The translations under genes were made by a program, and so were the position numbers. The notes below the pieces were generated by a model. That model worked only from the letters and a program-made list of their open reading frames with translations. It was not told the origin of the DNA and ran no database searches. DNA of 38,616 nucleotides, from positions 5,989 to 44,604 of the forward strand of contig CAZXUE010000006.1 in assembly GCA_964643895.1 (NCBI GenBank), in the 5' to 3' direction. The stretch comes from an uncultured Candidatus Saccharibacteria bacterium. Lineage in GTDB: Bacteria > Patescibacteriota > Saccharimonadia > Saccharimonadales > UBA7683. How positions within the stretch are numbered: position 1 is the first letter of the stretch; the number at the start of each line of letters is the position of its first letter. Of this stretch, positions 3,742 through 38,616 are shown piece after piece.

Positions 3742-5013
3742 ATGCATGTCTATTTTTCTGGGATTGGCGGGGTTGGGATTGGCCCACTGGCACTATTAGC
3801 ACTTGATGCTGGGTTCACGGTAAGTGGCTCAGATCTGCAAGCATCCGAACTCACCAAATCACTTGAAGAGCGCGGAGCGAATGTAGTGATTGGTCAAGAC
3901 GGCAAAAATCTAAAGGCAACTCACCTGGAGCAGGCTATTGATTGGTTTGTATACACCTCCGCACTGCCATCCGATCATCCCGAGCTACGCGCGGCAAATG
4001 AACAAGGTATCAAAACCAGCAAGCGGGGGGATTTCTTAAACGATCTTCTTAAACAGCTTAATCTCAAGATGATTGCCGTGGCCGGTACACACGGCAAAAC
4101 CACCACTACCGGTATGTTAATTTGGCTTTTCGAGCAGCTCGATCTACCGGTGAGTTACTCGGTTGGCACCACTCTCTCATTTGGGCCGGCAGCTCAGTAC
4201 CAAAAAGGCTCCGAACACTTCGTATATGAGTGCGATGAGTTCGACCGAAACTTCTTGGAGTTTCATCCTGAGATCAGCCTAATTACTTCTCTCGATTACG
4301 ACCACCCAGACACATACCCTTCTAGGCAAGAATATTTTGATGCGTTTACCCAGTTTAGCGAGCAATCCAAGCTCAGTGTTCTCTGGGAGCAAGATGCCGA
4401 AAAAATTCAATCTGAGGGCAACCTTTTTGTCCTAACTAAACCGCAGGAACTTGGGCAAATTACGCTTGCTGGCGAGCATAATCGTCGTAATGCCTGGTTG
4501 GCCTGCAGCACCATTAACCGCCTGGGACTGGTTGAAAATGACCTCGTAAACTGGAAGATGCTCTTGAAAAAGGTGAGCAGCTTCCCGGGTACTAATCGCC
4601 GTTTTGAAAAGCTGGCCGAAAATATCTACACTGACTACGCGCATCACCCTGCCGAAATTAAGGCTACTTTACAGATGGCAACCGAGCTCAACTCGAATGT
4701 TGTGGCTATCTACCAGCCGCACCAGAACATTCGCCAACGTGAGCTGCTGGAAAATGATGGCTACAGTGATTGCTTCTCAGATGCAAAAAAGGTCTATTGG
4801 CTACCAACTTATTTGAGCCGCGAAAATGGTGCCAAGGTGATTTCACCCCAAGAACTCAGTGCAACCGCAAAAAATACACTGATTGAAATAGCTGATACGA
4901 ACGAACAGCTACGCCAAAAAATCAAGAAACACCAAGAAGATGGTGATCTAATAGTAGCAATGTCCGCTGGTGACTTAGATGCTTGGGTCAGAGAGCAACT
5001 GTACAATAATTGA
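3742..5013 (+). CDS. murC: UDP-N-acetylmuramate--L-alanine ligase (Mur ligase family)
   Basis: N-terminal GIGGVGIGPLA..VSGSD Rossmann motif, P-loop GTHGKTTTTGM, DEFDRNF...DYDHPD, and DYAHHPAEI. I place the start at the internal ATG 3742 (MHVYFSGIGG), which has AAGG upstream. The Mpl paralogue cannot be excluded. Confidence 0.75.
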   Translation: MHVYFSGIGGVGIGPLALLALDAGFTVSGSDLQASELTKSLEERGANVVIGQDGKNLKATHLEQAIDWFVYTSALPSDHPELRAANEQGIKTSKRGDFLNDLLKQLNLKMIAVAGTHGKTTTTGMLIWLFEQLDLPVSYSVGTTLSFGPAAQYQKGSEHFVYECDEFDRNFLEFHPEISLITSLDYDHPDTYPSRQEYFDAFTQFSEQSKLSVLWEQDAEKIQSEGNLFVLTKPQELGQITLAGEHNRRNAWLACSTINRLGLVENDLVNWKMLLKKVSSFPGTNRRFEKLAENIYTDYAHHPAEIKATLQMATELNSNVVAIYQPHQNIRQRELLENDGYSDCFSDAKKVYWLPTYLSRENGAKVISPQELSATAKNTLIEIADTNEQLRQKIKKHQEDGDLIVAMSAGDLDAWVREQLYNN

Positions 5014-5692
5014 TTGGGAGGCCTTCGGCGGTAAATTTTTGTTCATAGTGAGTTTTGATTTTGTATTCATCTGGAAGATTACTTTCGTGAAGATCAAATG
5101 AGAGTTCTTGAAAGTGCCATTTTTCAGCAACGAGCTGCTCTATACTCCAGAGAAACAGTTGACGATTATCAGTTTTGAATTTAAGCAATCCTGTGTCCTT
5201 CAATAATTTGCGATATTGTTGCAAAAATGAAATATGACTTAAACGATGTTTAGCACTCCGCTCTCTCGGAAACGGATCAGGAAAAGTAAGCCAGATTTCA
5301 TCAACACTACGAGGCTCAAACACTTGTTCGAGTTCGTTAAGGTGCATTCTTAAAAACGCAATGTTTTTCACCCTTTCTTCAAGCGCTTTTTTGGCGCTTG
5401 TATATAATCTATCCGATTTAATATCTACTGCTATGAAATCTTTTTCAGGATGTCTTCGCGCCAGCTCCAAGCTAAACTGCGCATTCCCTGCCGCCAACTC
5501 CAATACCAGTGGCCGTGTTTCCAGGGTGGCACCTCGAAAGTGAGGGAAGTGTGTTTTAATTTGCTTTTTTGCAAGATCCGGGCTGCTGCCACGGTTGAAT
5601 GTGAAGCAATTTTTGTAGCTTTCAAAATGTGCAAACTTCCATTTCTTGCGTTTTCGGGTAATATACAGCCCATCACGCGGTAAAGTTTGCAC
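4988..5692 (-). CDS. trmB: tRNA (guanine-N7)-methyltransferase
   Basis: LELAAGNAQFSLELA SAM motif, FIAVDIK, and EIWLTFPDPFPRERSAKHRL, typical of TrmB. The GTG start shares 1 nt with the mazG-like stop (TAGTG). Confidence 0.85.
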   Translation of the reverse strand: MQTLPRDGLYITRKRKKWKFAHFESYKNCFTFNRGSSPDLAKKQIKTHFPHFRGATLETRPLVLELAAGNAQFSLELARRHPEKDFIAVDIKSDRLYTSAKKALEERVKNIAFLRMHLNELEQVFEPRSVDEIWLTFPDPFPRERSAKHRLSHISFLQQYRKLLKDTGLLKFKTDNRQLFLWSIEQLVAEKWHFQELSFDLHESNLPDEYKIKTHYEQKFTAEGLPINYCTVAL

Positions 5693-6033
5693 TAACGATT
5701 ATCTCCGCTACCGTGTCTAACGCCGCGTGATTTTCGACTAAGTACTTTCTCCAGATTTTGCTGCGCTACCGCTTCTAAATCTGACCCGAGCAGTGTTGCC
5801 ACCGAGTTGATATACCAGAGTACATCACCGAGTTCTTTCAGAATTTCTTTTTTGTCATCTACAGAAAGTCTACCAGCTTTATCGCGAATGAGTTTTTTAA
5901 ATTTTTCAGCGACTTCACCGCTCTCTCCAATGAGACCGAAGACCTGAGAAATTAATACTGGTTCAAGGTCCTGCATGTCGTGCCCATCAAGTAGTGTGGT
6001 GATGGCTTGTTTTGAATAGTCGTTTATCGTCAT
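5692..6033 (-). CDS. MazG-like nucleotide pyrophosphohydrolase domain protein
   Basis: 113 aa with an ExxE metal motif (GESGEVAEKFKK) and LGDVLWY, typical of the small MazG family. Confidence 0.8.
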   Translation of the reverse strand: MTINDYSKQAITTLLDGHDMQDLEPVLISQVFGLIGESGEVAEKFKKLIRDKAGRLSVDDKKEILKELGDVLWYINSVATLLGSDLEAVAQQNLEKVLSRKSRGVRHGSGDNR

Positions 6034-6151
6034 GTTTACTCCTTTACGGCTACAACTGGCTGAGCCCCGTTTATTCTATTTAATCCGTACCCTCGATAGT
6101 ACCAGATCGGTCGTCTTAGCTAAAAGCATATGTGCTTTGTTATACTAATGT

Positions 6152-7027
6152 GTGATGAGCACCGAAGCAATTCTTAAGTCATTCCAGACCTGGTCAGTTG
6201 ATCATGGCTGGAAGATTGTTTTAATCCTTATTATAGCCAGCGTTGTGCGCCGTTTTGGTGAAGCATTTTTGCGTAAGTTTATTCATCGCAGCATTCAACA
6301 TTCTGATCGTTTTGAAAACGACCGCGACCGTAAGCTTCGCGCCGATACGCTCATTAGCTTGATTGGCTCTATCATGAAGGTCATTACCTGGATCTTAATT
6401 GCCTTGTTGGTGCTTTCCGAACTTGGCGTGCTCAAAGTTTTGGCGCCTATTTTAGCTGGCGCGCTGGCAGTCGGCGGTGTACTAAGCTTGTTGCTTGGAT
6501 TTGGTATTCAAACTTTTGTAAAGGATTTTATCAGCGGCATCTTTATTGTCGTGGAAAATCAGTACCGTGTAGGCGATGTGGTTTCTCTGACTGCTACTGG
6601 CGGGGATGTGGAGGGAACAGTTATTCGTATTACGCTCAGAACAACAGTACTTCGCGATAACGACGGAGCCATTCACTTCGTGCCAAATGGCAACATTAAT
6701 CGTGCGGCTAATCAAACTCTTGACTACGCTAAGGTAAACGTTGAACTAACATTGCCGCTTGAGGCTGATTTTGACAAAGCTGAACGGGAGATTGCCGCGC
6801 TCGGTCTTGCAATGGGACAAGAAGAGTTGTGGCAGAGTTCAATGGTGCAGGCTCCGTATTATCACGGTGTTCAAACGTTTGATAAAGATCATGTTACTGT
6901 TGAGGTGCGCGCCAAAACTATTCCCGCAGAGCAGTGGCGAGTTTCTTCGGAACTACAAAAGCGTTTAGCAAAACTGGTCAGTGATGCAGACTTCTTCGTG
7001 TCTAAGAAGAAGCCTGATAAAAAGTGA
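6152..7027 (+). CDS. small-conductance mechanosensitive channel (MscS family)
   Basis: Three TM helices followed by VGDVVSL...GTVIRITLRTTVLRDNDGAIHFVPNGNI, the MscS beta-domain signature. The start is GTG 6152 or ATG 6155, directly behind a TATACT -10-like hexamer. Confidence 0.85.
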   Translation: MMSTEAILKSFQTWSVDHGWKIVLILIIASVVRRFGEAFLRKFIHRSIQHSDRFENDRDRKLRADTLISLIGSIMKVITWILIALLVLSELGVLKVLAPILAGALAVGGVLSLLLGFGIQTFVKDFISGIFIVVENQYRVGDVVSLTATGGDVEGTVIRITLRTTVLRDNDGAIHFVPNGNINRAANQTLDYAKVNVELTLPLEADFDKAEREIAALGLAMGQEELWQSSMVQAPYYHGVQTFDKDHVTVEVRAKTIPAEQWRVSSELQKRLAKLVSDADFFVSKKKPDKK

Positions 7028-24206: not shown

Positions 24207-25625
24207 TTATTTTCTACCGAAGTAGAGGATGCCCGTGATCATCCAGAAGGCGCAAATGCCGGCAGCGATGGCGGTGAACATTGGCAAACCAATGGTGATA
24301 ATAGCGGGCATGGAAAGGGCGGTAATGATACCACCCCCCACGAAGGGTTCAAACATGAGCTGCTTAAACCCGAAGCTTTCGGCAGCGTTAGTTTTATCAT
24401 TTGGGTCAACCATGTGAAGAAACAGTAAGCCCGTGGCGGTCATGCCCATACTCTGCGCCGCATTAACAATGGCATTTGGGAACCAGTTCTTTTTGAACAT
24501 GTGCCGTGCAAGAACCAGAAATCCAAATAAAATCCAGAGAATGCCGGTAGCGGCCAGCACCAAGAAGATGCCAATATTATTACCTATTGTATTGAGCGAC
24601 ATTGTCGCAACCGCCGTAGCAATCAAAACACTGAGTGCAATGCTGCTCAGTAGCTCCACTAATGGGCGAGAGGTCTGAAGACCAAGTTTTGACCAAATAA
24701 CCTGCGCCACCATACCACCAAACATACAGAACGGGAAGAACGGTACATAGCGCAGCGCTGTTACATCATGTCTTCCCCAAGTGAGATCTTCTATTTTTAG
24801 TAATCCCTGATAAATCAGCCAGCCGAAGAAAACACTCAAACCAATTAAAATAATGTGGCTCACAATCCATTTTGGCGTTAAATGTTCACGAAGCTTGATT
24901 CCCCGCTTGTTGAGCTCATGAATAATACGGCGGTGATAAATGCGCTCGCGCAGATTTGTTTTGTAAACTGCTTTAATGTGCCCGCGACGGCGGCCCCAAT
25001 TAACCATCAGCACTCCACTGATAAGCGCTGTGCATAAACTGAGTGTTGCCAGACCAAGCGCAATTTCCTGCCCATCACGAAAACCAAGATTATTAAAGAC
25101 CGGCGACAAGCCCGAAACTGTACCGTGGCCGCCTTCAAAGCTAATCTCGATTAATGCGGCAGTGATATCGCGTGTTTTAAAGAACGGGATCAATACCAGC
25201 ATGGTTACTAAACCGCCGAGCGCATACTGGCCCCACGCCAACATTTGCCCAAAGGCTACTTGTGGGCCAGCCAACTTCCACATCTTTTTAAGCGGAAAGA
25301 GCGGCCGGGCCAGGAACAAGCAGGCAAACACTACATTAATGAGCTGCTTTGGTAATAGTCTCCAAAATTCATAAAACGTGGCATTTAACTGCCAGTCAGG
25401 AAAATGGTTGCCAGCAATTTGTGGCCCAACCAGCAACAACAAAAAACCGGCCACCAAAGAACCAGGCAAATAGGCGCGGCTAATTAACGGCAAACGAACA
25501 ATCAGATAGCCTGCCATCAAGAATCCCCCGATCACGAGGAGTGAATATGTTTGTGTTGCGATCACAGAGGTAGTATAGCATAAGCGGTTTGATAATTCGT
25601 TGATAGCAGATCGTTTATCGAACAA
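24207..25625 (-). CDS. sodium/glutamate symporter-like (GltS/ESS family) membrane transporter
   Basis: Polytopic protein with two homologous halves. FEGGHGTVSGL resembles the conserved GGHGT of GltS. The start codon is uncertain (TTG at 25625 in the ORF track). Confidence 0.55.
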   Translation of the reverse strand: MFDKRSAINELSNRLCYTTSVIATQTYSLLVIGGFLMAGYLIVRLPLISRAYLPGSLVAGFLLLLVGPQIAGNHFPDWQLNATFYEFWRLLPKQLINVVFACLFLARPLFPLKKMWKLAGPQVAFGQMLAWGQYALGGLVTMLVLIPFFKTRDITAALIEISFEGGHGTVSGLSPVFNNLGFRDGQEIALGLATLSLCTALISGVLMVNWGRRRGHIKAVYKTNLRERIYHRRIIHELNKRGIKLREHLTPKWIVSHIILIGLSVFFGWLIYQGLLKIEDLTWGRHDVTALRYVPFFPFCMFGGMVAQVIWSKLGLQTSRPLVELLSSIALSVLIATAVATMSLNTIGNNIGIFLVLAATGILWILFGFLVLARHMFKKNWFPNAIVNAAQSMGMTATGLLFLHMVDPNDKTNAAESFGFKQLMFEPFVGGGIITALSMPAIITIGLPMFTAIAAGICAFWMITGILYFGRK

Positions 25626-25659: not shown

Positions 25660-26259
25660 CTACATATAAAGCTGATGGGAGGCACAGTATTGATACACGG
25701 CATCGGGTAAATCATTTGCGGCTTGTTGAGCAGCAATTACCTCGCGGATCTTTTTTGAGCTAATGTGCGGATGATGATTTTCAATTAAACGAATTGCCGG
25801 TGAGAACCCGAGTGCAGCCAGCTCTTCTAACTTTTCATCAAGCCATGCTTTTGTGTGGTCGTCTCGTAGTGCCACTATAAACCCACCGTATTCATGCTGT
25901 GCAGTGATGGATTGCCACCGCTTCATATGTTCAAAGACATCTGAGCCAACTAAAAACCAAAATTCGTTTTCCTTACCATAATGTGTACGTGCAACAGTTA
26001 GCATGTCTTGCATGGTATGCTGATGCGCCAGCTTATTTGAAAACTCGTAGTCATGGTCGACCTCTGATACACTTTCGGTCGCGCGCTGAATCATGGCCTG
26101 GCGATGGTCCCAGCTGGCAAACGGCTTCTTGCGGTAAGGGTTTTTCTCAGCTACAATTATCACCTTTTCAAGGTCAGATTCCGACACAGCTTTGATCGCA
26201 AACGCAATATGCCCAGTGTGAATGGGGTCAAATGTCCCAGCAAAAATTCCTATCTTCAT
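25660..26259 (-). CDS. nadD: nicotinate-nucleotide adenylyltransferase
   Basis: GIFAGTFDPIHTGHI (HxGH motif) and the C-terminal ISSKKIR (ISSTxIR-like). Its ATG overlaps the upstream gene's stop (ATGA). Confidence 0.85.
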   Translation of the reverse strand: MKIGIFAGTFDPIHTGHIAFAIKAVSESDLEKVIIVAEKNPYRKKPFASWDHRQAMIQRATESVSEVDHDYEFSNKLAHQHTMQDMLTVARTHYGKENEFWFLVGSDVFEHMKRWQSITAQHEYGGFIVALRDDHTKAWLDEKLEELAALGFSPAIRLIENHHPHISSKKIREVIAAQQAANDLPDAVYQYCASHQLYM

Positions 26260-27785
26260 AAGACTATTTTCTCATGCTCAGCTGATTTTGTCTTATCGTC
26301 ATTCTTGCCAACTACTTGTTTTTTGTTTGACCCAAACGGCCACTGGAGAAACGCTGTAGCTTTTTTGGTCACCTTTTTACCCACTTTACGCATTCTTTTA
26401 TATGTAGTTGACGGATTTCGACCATGATCAAATTCGTGTTGACAGCCACGGCACACACTGCAAGGGCCAACATCAGTCCTGCCTGGACGAGTTGGACAAG
26501 CATTAACTCGACAAACCCCCTTAGACCACCGCCAGCTCTCTTTACCGAGCTTCAATAGCTTCGTCATTGGATCGACTTCTACTCCCATTTTTTGTGTTTC
26601 TTCAGCTGAAATGCTCATACCGCAGAATGAGACCGATTCTTCCAAAACACGGTTAGAGTCGAGTACCGCGGAAGCACCAGCATAATCTCCGGCAGCCGTT
26701 AGGTCACTGGCTCTCATAAAACCAACTGCAGCTTTTTCACCAAAACACCCTACTGCATATGAAGGGTCCATCACACAAATTGCTCTTAAAATATTTGCAA
26801 CTTCCTGCTTAAACTGCGTCTGATATTGCTTCTCGGTGATCAAGCCCTCATTTTTTAAGCTATCGAGGCGTTCGGTAAAGTCAGCCAATTGCTCAACGTA
26901 GCACTGTGCGACACGCTCACGCTCCGCAGATTCACGTTGCAAATCTCCGTACTCGCTTTGCTCAGCATGAGCCTGTTCACCGTATCGTATTCTTGCACCA
27001 TGATGCTGATCAAGTCGCTTTAGTAACCCCAGAACACCTTGGCTCATTTCGTGCATAAGCTGCGTGCCAAGCACCGATACATCAGCATGTTGGGCAGAAC
27101 GTAGATTTACTCCTGCTCCTATAAGAAAGTCGGATGAGCGGACTGCATCACTATTGCTGCGGCTCACCTGCTGTGAGATACGCGTAAATGTACCATCACA
27201 ATTATTTCGTAACCGGCTGCTGCGTAACATACCCTTCTTGTTTGATGGCCGGTAGCCTATAAGCTCGGCTGAGTTTTCGCTTATTGCCCCTTCGGCAATA
27301 AAGTCGGAGATGGTTGCAACCTCAAGGGTATCAGGCAACTCTCCTTCGGCAATTTTCAGCTCTACCGCCTGTATGGTGAGCTCCTCGCAGATCTCCATAA
27401 AGCGCCGACGCTGTTCGTGTGCCGGTAATCTATCGCTATATGCATTTAGGAGTACTGAGAGCATAGTTTGATGAATTTCATCAAGACTGCCTGTTGTTTC
27501 TACAACTGAAAGATGGCCAGAAGCGGTAAGCGCCTCAAATAATAACGTGCGGGCGTCATCGAGATAGGTTTTATGAGATTTGTATGAAGTTTCAATACGT
27601 GTATGATTTTCTATCAATTCATGGGCTTGCCGCTCTATCTGCACACGATCAAACAAATCATCCGCCCCAATTAACGGCTCCACTAGTTCAAAATTAGCGG
27701 CAATTTCAGCAAACGCTGCCGCTTCATTTTGCGGGAGCTTAAACTCATCCGTACCCACCCGGTCTGTTGTTAGTACCCTCTCCAC
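26256..27785 (-). CDS. hypothetical cytosolic protein with C-terminal Cys-rich zinc-ribbon-like motif and Lys-rich tail
   Basis: 509-aa ORF with a GTG start 7 nt after GGAG. It has no signal peptide or TM segment. The C-terminus reads CRVNACPTRPGRTDVGPCSVCRGCQHEF followed by KRMRKVGKKVTKK. No family recognised. Confidence 0.75.
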   Translation of the reverse strand: MERVLTTDRVGTDEFKLPQNEAAAFAEIAANFELVEPLIGADDLFDRVQIERQAHELIENHTRIETSYKSHKTYLDDARTLLFEALTASGHLSVVETTGSLDEIHQTMLSVLLNAYSDRLPAHEQRRRFMEICEELTIQAVELKIAEGELPDTLEVATISDFIAEGAISENSAELIGYRPSNKKGMLRSSRLRNNCDGTFTRISQQVSRSNSDAVRSSDFLIGAGVNLRSAQHADVSVLGTQLMHEMSQGVLGLLKRLDQHHGARIRYGEQAHAEQSEYGDLQRESAERERVAQCYVEQLADFTERLDSLKNEGLITEKQYQTQFKQEVANILRAICVMDPSYAVGCFGEKAAVGFMRASDLTAAGDYAGASAVLDSNRVLEESVSFCGMSISAEETQKMGVEVDPMTKLLKLGKESWRWSKGVCRVNACPTRPGRTDVGPCSVCRGCQHEFDHGRNPSTTYKRMRKVGKKVTKKATAFLQWPFGSNKKQVVGKNDDKTKSAEHEKIVL

Positions 27786-27960
27786 TAAAAAACTCCTGCT
27801 GTTGGTGTTATACCGTGCAGGAGTTATAAAAAGACAAACCCTTATTTTTTGACTTTTTGTTTTCTCCTGCTCGGGAGACCTTACAAGGCTTTAAGCGTAT
27901 CGGACTTTAACCGTTGCGGCACAGCGTTGGATTTTCACCAAACTTCCGCTTTAAACCAAG
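27786..27960 (-). promoter_or_regulatory. cobalamin (B12) riboswitch-like leader, compact form
   Basis: Aptamer at 27887-27957 (minus strand): GGUUUAAAGC-GGAAGUUUGGUGAAAAUCCAACGCUGUGCCGCAACGGUUAAAGUCCGAUAC-GCUUAAAGCC. By eye it matches the B12 core (GGAAG, GGUGAAAAUCC, and the B12-box-like GCCGCAACGG). A 10-position P1 helix closes it, and an antiterminator/terminator switch follows. Confidence 0.65.
27787..27825 (-). terminator. intrinsic terminator / SD-sequestering hairpin (expression platform of the leader)
   Basis: Minus-strand RNA AACUCCUGC-(17-nt loop)-GCAGGAGUU followed by UUUUA and then the GTG start. The GGAG SD sits in the 3' arm. Confidence 0.7.
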
Positions 27961-27981
27961 GTCAGATTGTTAACAATTCTT

Positions 27982-28010
27982 ATTGTACGCTTGGCATAGC
28001 GTAGACGCAA
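27982..28010 (-). promoter_or_regulatory. sigma70-like promoter for the riboswitch-led operon
   Basis: On the minus strand, TTGCGT (28010-28005), a 17-nt spacer, then TACAAT (27987-27982), about 25 nt upstream of the aptamer P1. Confidence 0.55.
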
Positions 28011-28066: not shown

Positions 28067-28414
28067 GTGAGCATGGCTACAAAAAAGAAGAACCCCATGG
28101 CACTGACACAAAAAGCTCGTAAAATCATGAGGGGTGATATCACCCGAAGCGTGGCAATCACCTCAATACTCTTGAATGTATTATTCTTGATTAGTATTTT
28201 CGTGATTACCAGTACTGACACATTTGATCGCCGTGTCTATATATCGGCTCGCGATCGCTACTGTGCCAACAATGTGGCTACCGAAGAACGAGCACAAGAA
28301 CTCGGTGATAGCAGCGCAGCTGTACGCGAACGACAGATTGACTGTATTGGCCCAGATTTCCGACCGTTTTACAAAGAGGCGGTTGATAAATACCGAGCGC
28401 AGACCGCTCAGTAA
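28067..28414 (+). CDS. hypothetical membrane-anchored protein
   Basis: 115-aa ORF with one TM segment (ITSILLNVLFLISIFVI). The start is GTG 28067 or ATG 28073. Confidence 0.6.
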   Translation: MSMATKKKNPMALTQKARKIMRGDITRSVAITSILLNVLFLISIFVITSTDTFDRRVYISARDRYCANNVATEERAQELGDSSAAVRERQIDCIGPDFRPFYKEAVDKYRAQTAQ

Positions 28415-35879: not shown

Positions 35880-36380
35880 ATGGGCGAAATAATTAATGCC
35901 GTGTCAGATTTTGTGAAAGATTATGGAGGTTTGGGCTGGGTAATTGCCGCCGCAGCCCTAGCCTTCACCGTATTTCAGTTTTTATACAAGCGTAGGACTG
36001 GCGGAGTGAAACTTGACGTAACCTTTTCAAATGGCGTCCTGACGTACCCAAACGGTGAGCTGAGCGATCCGATGATATTCCTAAAAATCGCTAATACCGG
36101 TGGCAAAAAAGTTGTACTATGTAGCGTTTCGTTAAATATAAAAAGTAAACCCGCCAGCAGTGTTATTAATGGATATGGCCATCTGCAGCAGATGCCATAC
36201 GTTTTAGAGCCAGGCTACGACTATCAGGTTTGGTATGAACTTCTTCCTATAGCTAAGAATTTAAAGAAGAATGGACAATCGGGCAAGATTGCTATTCATG
36301 GTGAGTATTCCACGCAGGCAAATGGAAGATTTAAAGCCAAAAAGCCTTATAGGCTTGACGTTGATGGATGGACTAAATAG
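35880..36380 (+). CDS. hypothetical membrane-anchored protein
   Basis: 166-aa ORF with an N-terminal TM segment (GLGWVIAAAALAFTVFQFL) and a beta-rich C-terminal domain. Its 3' end overlaps the convergent gene by 8 nt. Confidence 0.55.
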   Translation: MGEIINAVSDFVKDYGGLGWVIAAAALAFTVFQFLYKRRTGGVKLDVTFSNGVLTYPNGELSDPMIFLKIANTGGKKVVLCSVSLNIKSKPASSVINGYGHLQQMPYVLEPGYDYQVWYELLPIAKNLKKNGQSGKIAIHGEYSTQANGRFKAKKPYRLDVDGWTK

Positions 36381-37587
36381 TAGACTTCAGCTTCACCAGA
36401 ATTTTACTCATTATTTCCGAGAAATGTTCATAATCAAAATCAACACTCATTAACGGGAGCCAAATTGTCCCACCGTTTTTGCCAGGGACGTGCATGATAT
36501 TTCGAGCAATAACTTTATAGTTATTTTTTATACGTGCCATTTCAAAGGCCATTGCCCTGTGTGCATCGTACATTTCCTGAGGTACTAGACGCGCTAACTG
36601 TGTCCAATCCATTTGTTTATCGACTATGGCATTTATTTCGATATCAGTGAGTGGCGTCTTTATCTCTTCAACCAAAGGCGTTTGCCGCATATCCCCTTCA
36701 TGCGCGATGAAATTACGGCGCTTTTTTAGAAATGCCATCCAGTGATTAATTTTCTTCACGGAAAGTTTTCTTGCAAGACCTGTACGTTTTTCCTTATTCC
36801 TTTTAATGAAGGTCGCTTTCTCTAGCCCTAGATCGCTATATTTATCACGAGGTATCTTCAATTTAAGAAAGTCGTTCAAAAGCCTCGCCATAGAGTCTAA
36901 GGCGCCAGCAAGCAAAAAATAATAGTTACTAATGTGATAGTTCAGCTCCAAGTTGTAAGTGTCGTCATCGCCGATGCCAGATCGCTCGGCTTTGCGAAGT
37001 CTTTTTACGTAATATTGTAGTAAATCCCTAGCATAATCAATCTGCTTAATCTTGTTTACTATGTATCGAATACGGTCAATCTGTTCACTGGTATACTTTG
37101 AGCTTCTTTGGCACTCCACCATGTAATTATAATAATCTTGACAGAGACCTGGCTGCTCCATGTAGCGTAATAGCGGCTGCATATTCCAGACAGGTTCACG
37201 TAATCTCCACGCGACACCGCTGCCTACTAAGAAATTTTCGATCGAATAAACAAGCTCTTCAATTGTTTGTACAATCTCAACCTTATAGAAGTTTTTGTTT
37301 GTGAATTTATCTGAATATGACCCGTCGAGATCTAATATTACATCAAGATCGTCTGAACCAATCTTTGCTAATAGGTTTTCCTCGCTTAGCGGACTATTAA
37401 ATTGCACCGATACTTTGAGGTTTGATCTTCCAATGTCAGATAGATATGTGTGTAAAATATCAATTTGCCCAAGAAGTTCAGCCAGGTCTGGGTTTGAGGC
37501 ATCTCCCAAAATTAAGACCTTCAAAGTATTAAACTGATGCAATATCGGTCTAAGCTCAGGGTAGATTACTCCATTTACCATCGGCAT
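36373..37587 (-). CDS. hypothetical protein with C-terminal HEPN-like Rx4H motif and N-terminal alpha/beta (Rossmann/TIR-like) module
   Basis: KKRRNFIAHEG (RNFIAH encoded at 36700-36717) is preceded by the helix NYHISNYYFLLAGALDSMARLL. The N-terminus has beta-alpha-beta strands (KVLILGD, KVSVQF, DVILDLDG). ATG 37587 lies 4 nt after the upstream TAG; the ORF track uses TTG 37599. The gene is AT-rich. Confidence 0.6.
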   Translation of the reverse strand: MPMVNGVIYPELRPILHQFNTLKVLILGDASNPDLAELLGQIDILHTYLSDIGRSNLKVSVQFNSPLSEENLLAKIGSDDLDVILDLDGSYSDKFTNKNFYKVEIVQTIEELVYSIENFLVGSGVAWRLREPVWNMQPLLRYMEQPGLCQDYYNYMVECQRSSKYTSEQIDRIRYIVNKIKQIDYARDLLQYYVKRLRKAERSGIGDDDTYNLELNYHISNYYFLLAGALDSMARLLNDFLKLKIPRDKYSDLGLEKATFIKRNKEKRTGLARKLSVKKINHWMAFLKKRRNFIAHEGDMRQTPLVEEIKTPLTDIEINAIVDKQMDWTQLARLVPQEMYDAHRAMAFEMARIKNNYKVIARNIMHVPGKNGGTIWLPLMSVDFDYEHFSEIMSKILVKLKSTI

Positions 37588-37591
37588 TGCG

Positions 37592-38616
37592 CTAAACAAC
37601 TTTCCCGGATGCTTCCTTTAGTTCCCTAAATATCTCAACCATTGCCCAAGTATCCATCTTGCAGTATTCAGTTAGGTCTGCGAGTATCTGATCCTTCTGG
37701 TCGGCTCGTGTTTCATCAAGCACCGCCTCCATCCAAAGTCGCTGGGCTGAGTTGCCGTCTTGAATACCAAGGTCTTTGTAGCTTAGCTCAGGGCACACTA
37801 CAGGCAGTACCTTTTTGATACTCGCGCTTCCCTCGCAGCGCGGATCGTCATACCATTTAGCCTTAAATGGGATCATGAGGTCGACGACACGCTCGTTAAT
37901 GGCCTTAATCTGCTCAGTATATTCCGGATACATCCGCCCCAGCTCTTCGTTTACCGATTTTTCAAAGCGCATATTCCAGGTAATAATTGAGCCGGAATCA
38001 CCCATGTCTGCTACTAGCTGCTTGGCTAAGTCTGGCGCTGGATTAGTGTTATCTTTGTGAAGATACTCTCTATGTTCTACTTCACCACCCGGTTCACGGA
38101 TGATATGCAGAGAATATTGAAACGGTACTTGCTGGTACGGTCGCTGGCCGTTGAAATATGGCACAAGGCCCTGCATCGTTTCATAGTCAAAAAAGTAGAG
38201 TGGATATTGTAGTTCACCCAAAAATCGTTCGATCTCTTGCTTGTTGATTTCGGCACGAGTATCTTCAGGCCAGATTTTAGGCTCGGGCGGAAATATATTT
38301 TCGTAAACCTTCATCCATTCAGATTTTGAACCAAGCTTAGCCAGTTCCGGATTTGGATCAGGCATTTCTGCTTGCGCGGCAGCTTTCTTTGCTGTTTCCA
38401 TGTATTCTGGAGTCTTTAAAGCAACTTCATTTACCTCATCGGTCACATCAGCAAACGTTGTTAGTTCTTTTGGGTTGACTTCACCCACCCGTACAGACTG
38501 ATTATTTACATGAATCACTGATATGTTTCGGACTGTAAAGCCATTTCCCTCAAGCACGGTCTTTTGGAACGCAAGATCGTATAGGTGATCGGGCTTAACG
38601 CGTGTGCTGGATTTAA
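37592..38616 (-). CDS. DUF2779-type protein: DEDD (DnaQ-like) exonuclease module plus the end of a PD-(D/E)xK nuclease module (5' end outside the window)
   Basis: The frame stays open upstream of the track start to the window edge (KSSTRVKPDHLYDLAFQKTVLEG...). YFFDYETM (DxE), PFQYSLH, ITWNMRFEKSV and YCKMDTWAMVEIF resemble Exo I-III motifs and the DUF2779 signature as I recall it. Confidence 0.65.
   Translation of the reverse strand, partial: KSSTRVKPDHLYDLAFQKTVLEGNGFTVRNISVIHVNNQSVRVGEVNPKELTTFADVTDEVNEVALKTPEYMETAKKAAAQAEMPDPNPELAKLGSKSEWMKVYENIFPPEPKIWPEDTRAEINKQEIERFLGELQYPLYFFDYETMQGLVPYFNGQRPYQQVPFQYSLHIIREPGGEVEHREYLHKDNTNPAPDLAKQLVADMGDSGSIITWNMRFEKSVNEELGRMYPEYTEQIKAINERVVDLMIPFKAKWYDDPRCEGSASIKKVLPVVCPELSYKDLGIQDGNSAQRLWMEAVLDETRADQKDQILADLTEYCKMDTWAMVEIFRELKEASGKVV

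Follow-up and report, generated by a model that had tools for sequence, protein, structure and literature searches.

A class-II cobalamin riboswitch with a putative kissing-loop hairpin and terminator/antiterminator platform ahead of a conserved, unannotated gene pair in Saccharibacteria

The locus described here lies on the minus strand of the window, by which we mean the whole stretch of DNA that was analysed (38,616 nucleotides), and comprises a candidate promoter, a structured leader and the two genes that follow it. Its features are listed below in the order of their coordinates.

25660-26259, minus strand: second regulated gene, a NadD-like nucleotidyltransferase (PF01467 at 2.6e-18)
26256-27785, minus strand: first regulated gene, a 509-aa protein with a GTG start and of no recognised family
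27787-27825, minus strand: predicted terminator or sequestering hairpin, in which AACUCCUGC (27825-27817) pairs with GCAGGAGUU (27799-27791)
27793-27796, minus strand: Shine-Dalgarno GGAG, 7 nt ahead of the start codon and within the terminator stem
27828-27858, minus strand: A/U-rich hairpin in the antiterminator loop, AAAAAGUCAAA / UUUGUCUUUUU, from folding
27863-27878, minus strand: P13 hairpin, UCUCC-CGAGCA-GGAGA, from RNAfold and covariation
27864-27870, minus strand: first copy of GCAGGAG, made of the last three bases of L13 and the 3' strand of P13; 5' strand of the antiterminator
27879-27886, minus strand: linker J1/13, UUGUAAGG, 8 nt, read from the sequence
27886-27958, minus strand: class-II cobalamin riboswitch aptamer (RF01689 match)
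27887-27897, minus strand: 3' strand of P1, CGCUUAAAGCC, pairing with 27957-27947
27901-27913, minus strand: P6 hairpin, CGG-UUAAAGU-CCG, with no peripheral extension
27915-27923, minus strand: P5 (U-A, G-C) with the loop L5 UGCCG (27921-27917), invariant
27926-27942, minus strand: P4 hairpin, stem UUGG/CCAA with a U.C at its base, loop L4 UGAAAAU
27947-27957, minus strand: 5' strand of P1, GGUUUAAAGCG, pairing with 27897-27887
27982-28010, minus strand: candidate promoter TTGCGT-17-TACAAT, read from the sequence

When the entire window was compared on both strands with 4227 Rfam families at curated thresholds, a sole match was obtained in the 38.6 kb, to RF01689 (AdoCbl-II), the class-II cobalamin riboswitch of clan CL00101, at 27958-27886 on the minus strand. 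It spans the full model (positions 1-81) and scores 43.1 bits against a gathering score of 36.5, with an E-value of 3.1e-7. A sequence-only reading of this DNA, whose quoted minus-strand RNA agrees with the letters, had proposed a cobalamin riboswitch of the small class-II or AdoCbl-variant type, and the gathering match bears out both parts of that proposal. The window copy has no P6 peripheral extension, its L6 being reduced to the 7 nt UUAAAGU, and it therefore belongs to class II. The J1/3 internal loop or T-loop contacting J6/3, which characterizes the class-IIa members of the env8 type, is absent from it: P1 is a single continuous helix running straight into the junction. The Rfam alignment shows deletions at seven consensus positions and flags three P3 pairs; with these deletions and no J1/3 T-loop, the ligand preference of the window copy is not readable from its sequence. 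Class-II members without J1/3 exist (PMC6158498), and the core of the B12-binding junction is conserved here at every position. Judged on these grounds the element is a cobalamin riboswitch of class II, and the RNA itself is an ordinary one that standard Rfam annotation would find; its family membership was computed, and that its ligand is a cobalamin is what we infer.

The aptamer is a four-way junction closed by P1 and formed with P4, P5 and P6, followed 8 nt downstream by the hairpin P13. In P1, 10 of 11 positions are paired, with one A.A mismatch, so that the helix proposed earlier stands while its count of 9 pairs in 10 positions has to be raised by an extra G-C pair. The compensatory changes put forward at the same time fared unequally: CGG pairing with CCG, where the consensus has CUG and CAG, is P6 and is supported by its covariation, whereas the helix GCGG/CCGC was rejected, since GCG forms the inner end of P1, where its partner is CGC (27897-27895), and GCCG belongs to L5. 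The L4 sequence UGAAAAU is the T-loop of the GGUGAAA motif.

Homologous leaders were collected by scanning one genome per GTDB species, which gave 26 loci encoding a homolog of the 509-aa protein. In 25 of the 26 the motif GCCGCAAC precedes the gene by 100-300 nt, the exception being a locus (L024) that begins inside the gene. Five orthologous leaders among the first 22 related loci match RF01689 or RF00174 at the Rfam gathering thresholds. A custom covariance model (R1), built from ten compact copies with the downstream hairpin included, recovered the element, correctly oriented, from all 25 loci with upstream DNA (32-103 bits), together with a second riboswitch copy in L019, and gave the window leader 85.8 bits over 27966-27860, P13 included. 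The riboswitch is associated with one unannotated gene pair in 25 of the 25 checkable genomes.

Since MAFFT placed P1 of the window one column off, the covariance-model realignment was used for covariation. The cells of this alignment are paired in 94.2% of cases, against 30-50% when the partners are slid by 1-3 columns, and double-sided changes are found in 107 cells against 33 +/- 5 in shuffles (0 of 500 as high); the alignment was fitted to the model and is biased towards the structure, the margin being nevertheless large. The covariation on which the sequence-only reading had made its proposal depend is found in these leaders: fourteen pairs, across P1, P4, P6 and additionally P13, change on both sides. 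Four of the five inner pairs of P1 do so, as do four of the five pairs of P4 (94% of cells paired), and in P6, which is 100% paired, G-C is replaced by U-A in 8 sequences. The segment CUGUGCCGCAAC of P5 and L5 is invariant across all true matches, and P5 is for that reason uninformative. A chance resemblance to the family, or a decayed relic deprived of regulatory role, is an explanation that the modest Rfam margin (6.6 bits over the threshold) might encourage, but the E-value of 3e-7, the covarying helices in 25 of 25 orthologous leaders and the conservation of the expression platform described below reduce its probability to almost nothing.

The same orthologous lineage is variable in its periphery. 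P6 insertions among the relatives range from 0 to about 190 nt, so that one lineage spans the boundary between class I and class II, and for L016 and L018 the best-scoring model is the class-I one, RF00174. Very large insertions, of about 190 nt in L009 (5590-5861) and about 100 nt in L012 (5772-5980), are found in otherwise identical aptamers. With the class-I riboswitches of RF00174 the window element shares its clan, its core and the logic connecting L5 to L13; it differs from them by its 7-nt L6 and by having no P7-P11 extension.

The sequence-only reading had overlooked P13 and the complementarity of its loop with L5. P13 is well supported by the alignment, where 4 of its 4 pairs covary and its stem takes the forms CUUC/GAAG, CUCU/AGAG, UUCC/GGAA and AUCC/GGAU among the relatives. 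Its loop L13 (27873-27868) is complementary to L5 through U27921-A27868, G27920-C27869, C27919-G27870, C27918-G27872 and G27917-C27873, A27871 being bulged. In the relatives L13 reads CG-N-GCA, with five invariant pairing bases and a bulged N that varies between A, U and G (L001, L005, L015), and its complementarity to UGCCG holds, according to the pair considered, in 27-29 of 29 rows; these pairs show no covariation because both loops are invariant. While the loop complementarity was computed, an L5-L13 kissing loop in solution, typical of cobalamin riboswitches, is suggested by this complementarity and by analogy, and by the same analogy it would couple ligand binding to the switch. The L5-L13 kissing loop of env8 is touched and stabilised by the ligand (PMC5028336), and according to Polaski 2016 every cobalamin kissing loop leaves one or more L13 nucleotides unpaired (PMC5028336). 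The linker preceding P13 measures 7 nt in wild-type env8, where regulation is lost at 0-4 nt and fades above 27 nt, giving an optimum of roughly 5-27 nt (PMC5028336); the 8 nt of the window J1/13 fall inside this working range.

Two class-II systems are useful for comparison. Structural data on the env8 riboswitch include PDB 4FRN. Another structure of it is PDB 4FRG (PMC6158498). Like env8HyCbl and env8Cbl-IIa (RF01689), the window RNA has a small four-way-junction aptamer with no P6 peripheral domain, a T-loop in L4, and a P13 situated a few nucleotides past P1, whose loop would kiss L5 with an unpaired base and whose 3' strand holds GGAG. Unlike env8, it has no J1/3 internal loop or T-loop and has one bulged base in L13 instead of two; moreover, the GGAG of its P13 would be not a working ribosome-binding site but an antiterminator strand for a hairpin about 70 nt downstream. 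The second system, the eut-associated RNA of Enterococcus faecalis, acts in trans within a small RNA and is not known to use a kissing-loop expression platform. It is a class-II member without J1/3 (PMC6158498), and the window RNA resembles it by its minimal class-II core with no identifiable J1/3 but differs from it as a cis-acting leader provided with P13.

The expression platform is built on a repeat. As the sequence-only reading had noticed, GCAGGAG occurs twice, at 27870-27864 and 27799-27793, and both copies are complementary to CUCCUGC at 27823-27817. The first copy overlaps the end of the P13 loop and its 3' strand and is therefore no free-standing repeat. The second takes part in a hairpin with a 9-bp stem (-14.9 kcal/mol by RNAfold) and a run of six U (27792-27787, two of them inside the stem), followed by an A and by the GTG at 27785; a stable G+C-containing stem thus stands directly before a U run, as in intrinsic terminators. 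The stem, the U run and the GGAG buried in it are as proposed earlier. Folding also produced the A/U-rich hairpin at 27828-27858, which is kept in the closest relatives alone (L001, L002, L004).

Transcripts of growing length, with ends from 27860 to the full length, were folded in silico. The transcript ending at 27860 forms P13 alone (-6.1 kcal/mol); in those ending at 27815 to 27795 the antiterminator 27870-27864/27823-27817 displaces P13 (-17.4 to -22.8 kcal/mol); and the full-length RNA alone prefers P13 together with the 9-bp hairpin, at -25.9 kcal/mol versus -22.8 kcal/mol for the forced ON form. This order of folding points to a kinetic decision, which is what a riboswitch acting on transcription should show. 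The two competing pairings, the succession in which they appear and the conservation of the design are computed results; actual termination would be their consequence. The terminator/antiterminator arrangement that had been proposed from the letters finds support both in this folding and in the similar logic of the relatives.

In the mechanism that we propose, bound cobalamin would stabilise the kissing loop between L5 (UGCCG) and L13 (CG-A-GCA, with A bulged) and lock P13. The first GCAGGAG would then be unavailable, and CUCCUGC (27823-27817) would stay free until the second GCAGGAG (27799-27793) emerges; the two would form the 9-bp hairpin which, with its U6, would stop the RNA polymerase before the start codon, and in transcripts that are read through the same hairpin would conceal the GGAG ribosome-binding site. 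In the absence of ligand P13 would be weak (about -6 kcal/mol), CUCCUGC would pair with the first GCAGGAG once transcribed, and this antiterminator would block the terminator during transcription, allowing the genes to be expressed. As a ligand-held P13 leads to the terminator and to the buried GGAG, the element would be an OFF switch. Our main reading, to which we give a probability of about 0.85, is that the leader is a B12-responsive OFF riboswitch of class II, whose kissing-loop and terminator/antiterminator platform controls the two-gene operon. The platform would then be a clean natural example of a kissing-loop hairpin serving as an antiterminator strand.

Comparison of the related leaders shows how regularly the downstream part is built. 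By script, at least 22 of 27 leaders have a stable hairpin and a U run immediately ahead of the start codon, and inspection by eye adds two more; the 3' strand of this hairpin holds the ribosome-binding site in those leaders, and the U run after the stem is U5-U7 in at least 22 of the 27. Antiterminators differ in sequence: GAGCAAG with CUUGCUC in L013, CCGAGCAG with CUGCUCGG in L003 and L008, and in L022 a duplicated CGAGCAGG as the antiterminator design. In L011, L016, L017, L018, L020 and L026, a simple duplex test found no antiterminator pairing that outperformed the shuffled controls. The U run is missing from L014. L021 (5675-5815) has no terminator at all; there the GGAG of P13 is the ribosome-binding site, with an AUG 9 nt downstream, which is the arrangement of env8. 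This plain translational design suggests that the window platform arose by duplication of the GCAGGAG segment.

These variants bear on the possibility that the same aptamer and kissing loop control translation alone, the hairpin hiding the ribosome-binding site and the U run being a spacer, with no termination. Translation is the main target of class-II members such as env8 (PMC5028336); L021 presents the translational form alone and L014 lacks the U run; the GGAG of the window lies inside the stem, 7 nt from the GTG; and the hairpin loop, at 17 nt, is long for an intrinsic terminator, which is why a consensus terminator scan did not list it. We nevertheless consider this explanation rather unlikely. 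The combination of a stem and U5-U7 in at least 22 of 27 leaders is more regular than a spacer requires, and as the full-length fold favours the hairpin even without ligand (-25.9 vs -22.8 kcal/mol), a purely thermodynamic translational switch would be mostly OFF, whereas the antiterminator is relevant only if the decision falls during transcription. The transcriptional and translational modes are in any case not exclusive.

A 9-codon upstream reading frame, UUG UCU UUU UAU AAC UCC UGC ACG GUA UAA (27806-27835, minus strand), with AAGGG ahead of it, overlaps the 5' strand of the terminator. It is in another frame in L001 and has 4 codons in L004; not being conserved in L004, this frame starting with UUG at 27835 is probably due to chance.

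The candidate promoter read from the sequence is present as described, with TTGCGT at 28010-28005, a 17-nt spacer and TACAAT at 27987-27982; a promoter scan did not list it because its -35 element matches TTGACA at 3 of 6 positions. L001-L004 and L008 retain either TACAAT or TATAAT. Just 5' of P1, at a fixed distance, 24 of 27 leaders carry TT[A/C/G]ACA(A), for which 0.06 occurrences per 90 nt would be expected by chance. The window version, TTAACAA (27967-27977, minus strand), is located within the 12-bp palindrome ATTGTTAACAAT about 8 nt past the likely -10 element, and the motif may correspond to the 5' end of the transcript or serve as a binding site. A second palindrome, TACGCT-ATGCCA-AGCGTA (27986-28003, minus strand), overlaps the promoter spacer and the -10 element and is the only ACGCT..AGCGT of the window. 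Related forms, ACTACATGTAGCGT and ACGCTAGCTACAGCGT, are found upstream of most orthologous riboswitches; across 307 kb of loci a strict pattern matches 11 times, and 9-10 of these matches fall at these riboswitch promoters. A protein regulator could act there in addition to the riboswitch, with the 27986-28003 palindrome as its candidate operator.

On the other side of this region, a divergent ORF of 115 aa (28067-28414, plus strand) presents one hydrophobic segment and no Pfam match. Its homologs in L001-L004 and L008 are 48-84% identical, and it is probably a real gene for a small membrane protein sharing its intergenic region with the riboswitch promoter. Further away (36373-38557, minus strand), adjacent genes encode a Cthe_2314-like HEPN domain and a DUF2779 protein and may form a defence or nuclease pair.

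The first gene of the operon encodes a protein that resists annotation. The 509-aa sequence has no Pfam or NCBIfam match even at E 10, and no relative was found by PDB sequence profile. An AlphaFold2 model obtained from 76 sequences is of good quality (pLDDT 90.2, pTM 0.85); Foldseek, run against PDB and BFVD, returned no match for it, the lowest E-value being 0.095. Its 88 homologs, where a source is named, come nearly all from Saccharibacteria or Saccharimonadales MAGs; a profile search of 1.8 billion representatives yielded 484 relatives, and ten distant ones that were looked up are unnamed or 'hypothetical'. The family possesses an invariant C388-G389 and a C-terminal cysteine cluster (C425/C430/C442/C445/C448).

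The start of the second gene overlaps the stop of the first by 4 nt, an arrangement by which the two are judged to be translationally coupled. The encoded protein carries an HxGH motif and has NadD enzymes as its best PDB relatives (E 6e-15), but it scores 107.1 bits against TIGR00482, below the cut-off of 112.45 for the equivalog NadD, nicotinate-nucleotide adenylyltransferase, and all NF0008xx NadD equivalog models lie far under their cut-offs. A NadD-like gene follows the homolog of the first gene in about 20 of the 26 loci and also in distant metagenome versions. Under similar riboswitches, such partners lie at the following positions:

L033, 7648-8298: NadD-like partner
L063, 3616-4167: NadD-like partner
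L052, 13681-14137: NadD-like partner
L069 (reverse complement), 5511-6203: NadD-like partner

In L052 and L069 the NadD-like gene is present although the first genes are not detectably homologous to the 509-aa protein. That the NadD-like partner persists even beside very distant or undetectably related first genes makes a functional pairing of the two seem likelier than a housekeeping nadD; the literature that we searched contained no relevant link between nadD and B12 riboswitches. We propose, at slightly less than even odds, that the 509-aa protein and its NadD-like partner constitute a conserved module which is switched on when B12 is scarce and has a new B12-linked function, either bypassing a B12-dependent step or capturing, processing or remodelling host cobamides.

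The gene that comes next (24207-25625, minus strand) encodes a GltS/ESS-type glutamate:Na+ symporter of ordinary type, predicted at 472 aa; as its homologs measure 436-452 aa, translation probably begins at a codon further downstream than the TTG at 25625. Being ordinary and present only in the closest relatives, it offers no B12 lead. A hydrolase further downstream is likewise restricted to the closest relatives.

The closest locus, L002, belongs to a Candidatus Saccharimonadales MAG and shares the gene order of the window, with 82-98% protein identity for most neighbourhood genes and a lower value, 66%, for the response regulator, so that the earlier guess of a CPR genome was right. The about 30 annotated genes of the 38-kb window include no cobalamin synthesis gene, the window being too small to settle the gene content of the genome.

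A metagenome scan for the L5...L13 DNA pattern returned at least 120 contigs. The first 100 loci listed contain 61 covariance-model matches in 59 loci; the pattern scan is noisy, and the remaining loci include a cluster of GGDEF genes and short high-GC ORFs. Among the matches listed, the genes downstream of the riboswitches include DUF4430 (at least 16 contigs) and DUF6580 genes, and judging from its N-terminal sequence the gene in L066 appears to be a PduO-type adenosyltransferase. We take all three kinds of gene to be B12-related. Clear or distant homologs of the 509-aa protein are found under riboswitches, among the matches listed, in L063, L033, L101, L046, L036 and L055. When the other long ORFs downstream of true riboswitches were compared by hhalign, homology to the 509-aa protein was limited to these six loci, which gives no support to a single large superfamily; several non-homologous first genes likewise end in Cys-rich tails. 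As a separate observation, L037, L042, L059 and 10 similar contigs carry the L5...L13 pattern 182 nt upstream of a GGDEF-domain gene. In these 13 nearly identical contigs the covariance model has no match at the pattern, which reflects either another riboswitch architecture or chance.

L019 contains two cobalamin riboswitches (4466-4605 and 5646-5765) in tandem operons, the first preceding a DUF4430 gene with a signal peptide and a DUF6580 membrane-protein gene, and the second a homolog of the 509-aa protein. The DUF4430 and DUF6580 proteins are presumably candidates for B12 binding or capture and for uptake. B12 auxotrophs use B12 sensors for the control of uptake genes. The sequence-only reading had found a B12 sensor unexpected in a reduced genome of this kind; the additional riboswitch of L019, ahead of DUF4430 and DUF6580 genes, speaks against this view, since with riboswitches controlling apparent uptake candidates as well as the 509-aa module, a B12 sensor in an auxotrophic lineage is not odd.

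The identity of the cargo also matters for the ligand. An aptamer of the cobalamin clan might sense something other than AdoCbl, MeCbl or HyCbl, for example another cobamide, cobinamide or a host-supplied corrinoid. We consider this improbable, because the core positions of the B12-binding junction are all conserved and because sister riboswitches precede the DUF4430, DUF6580 and PduO-type genes, taken as B12-related; what pleads for it is that the J1/3 element, which sets the selectivity of class IIa, is absent, that the cargo is no known B12 gene, and that cobalamin riboswitches are reported to respond broadly to corrinoids (PMC9600662).

With a B12-responsive OFF switch as the main reading, the riboswitch acts as a pointer and would provide a testable lead to a B12-related activity in host-dependent organisms. 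The literature searched contained no paper on natural B12 riboswitches in Saccharibacteria or other CPR bacteria. The part worth following is the conserved gene pair with its structural orphan, which on this reading is repressed by B12; if the proposed module is real, it would represent an enzyme family and a fold so far undescribed. Finally, inducible genetic tools for Saccharibacteria are still sought (PMC11665869), and the riboswitch offers a natural, ligand-controlled expression element for these bacteria.
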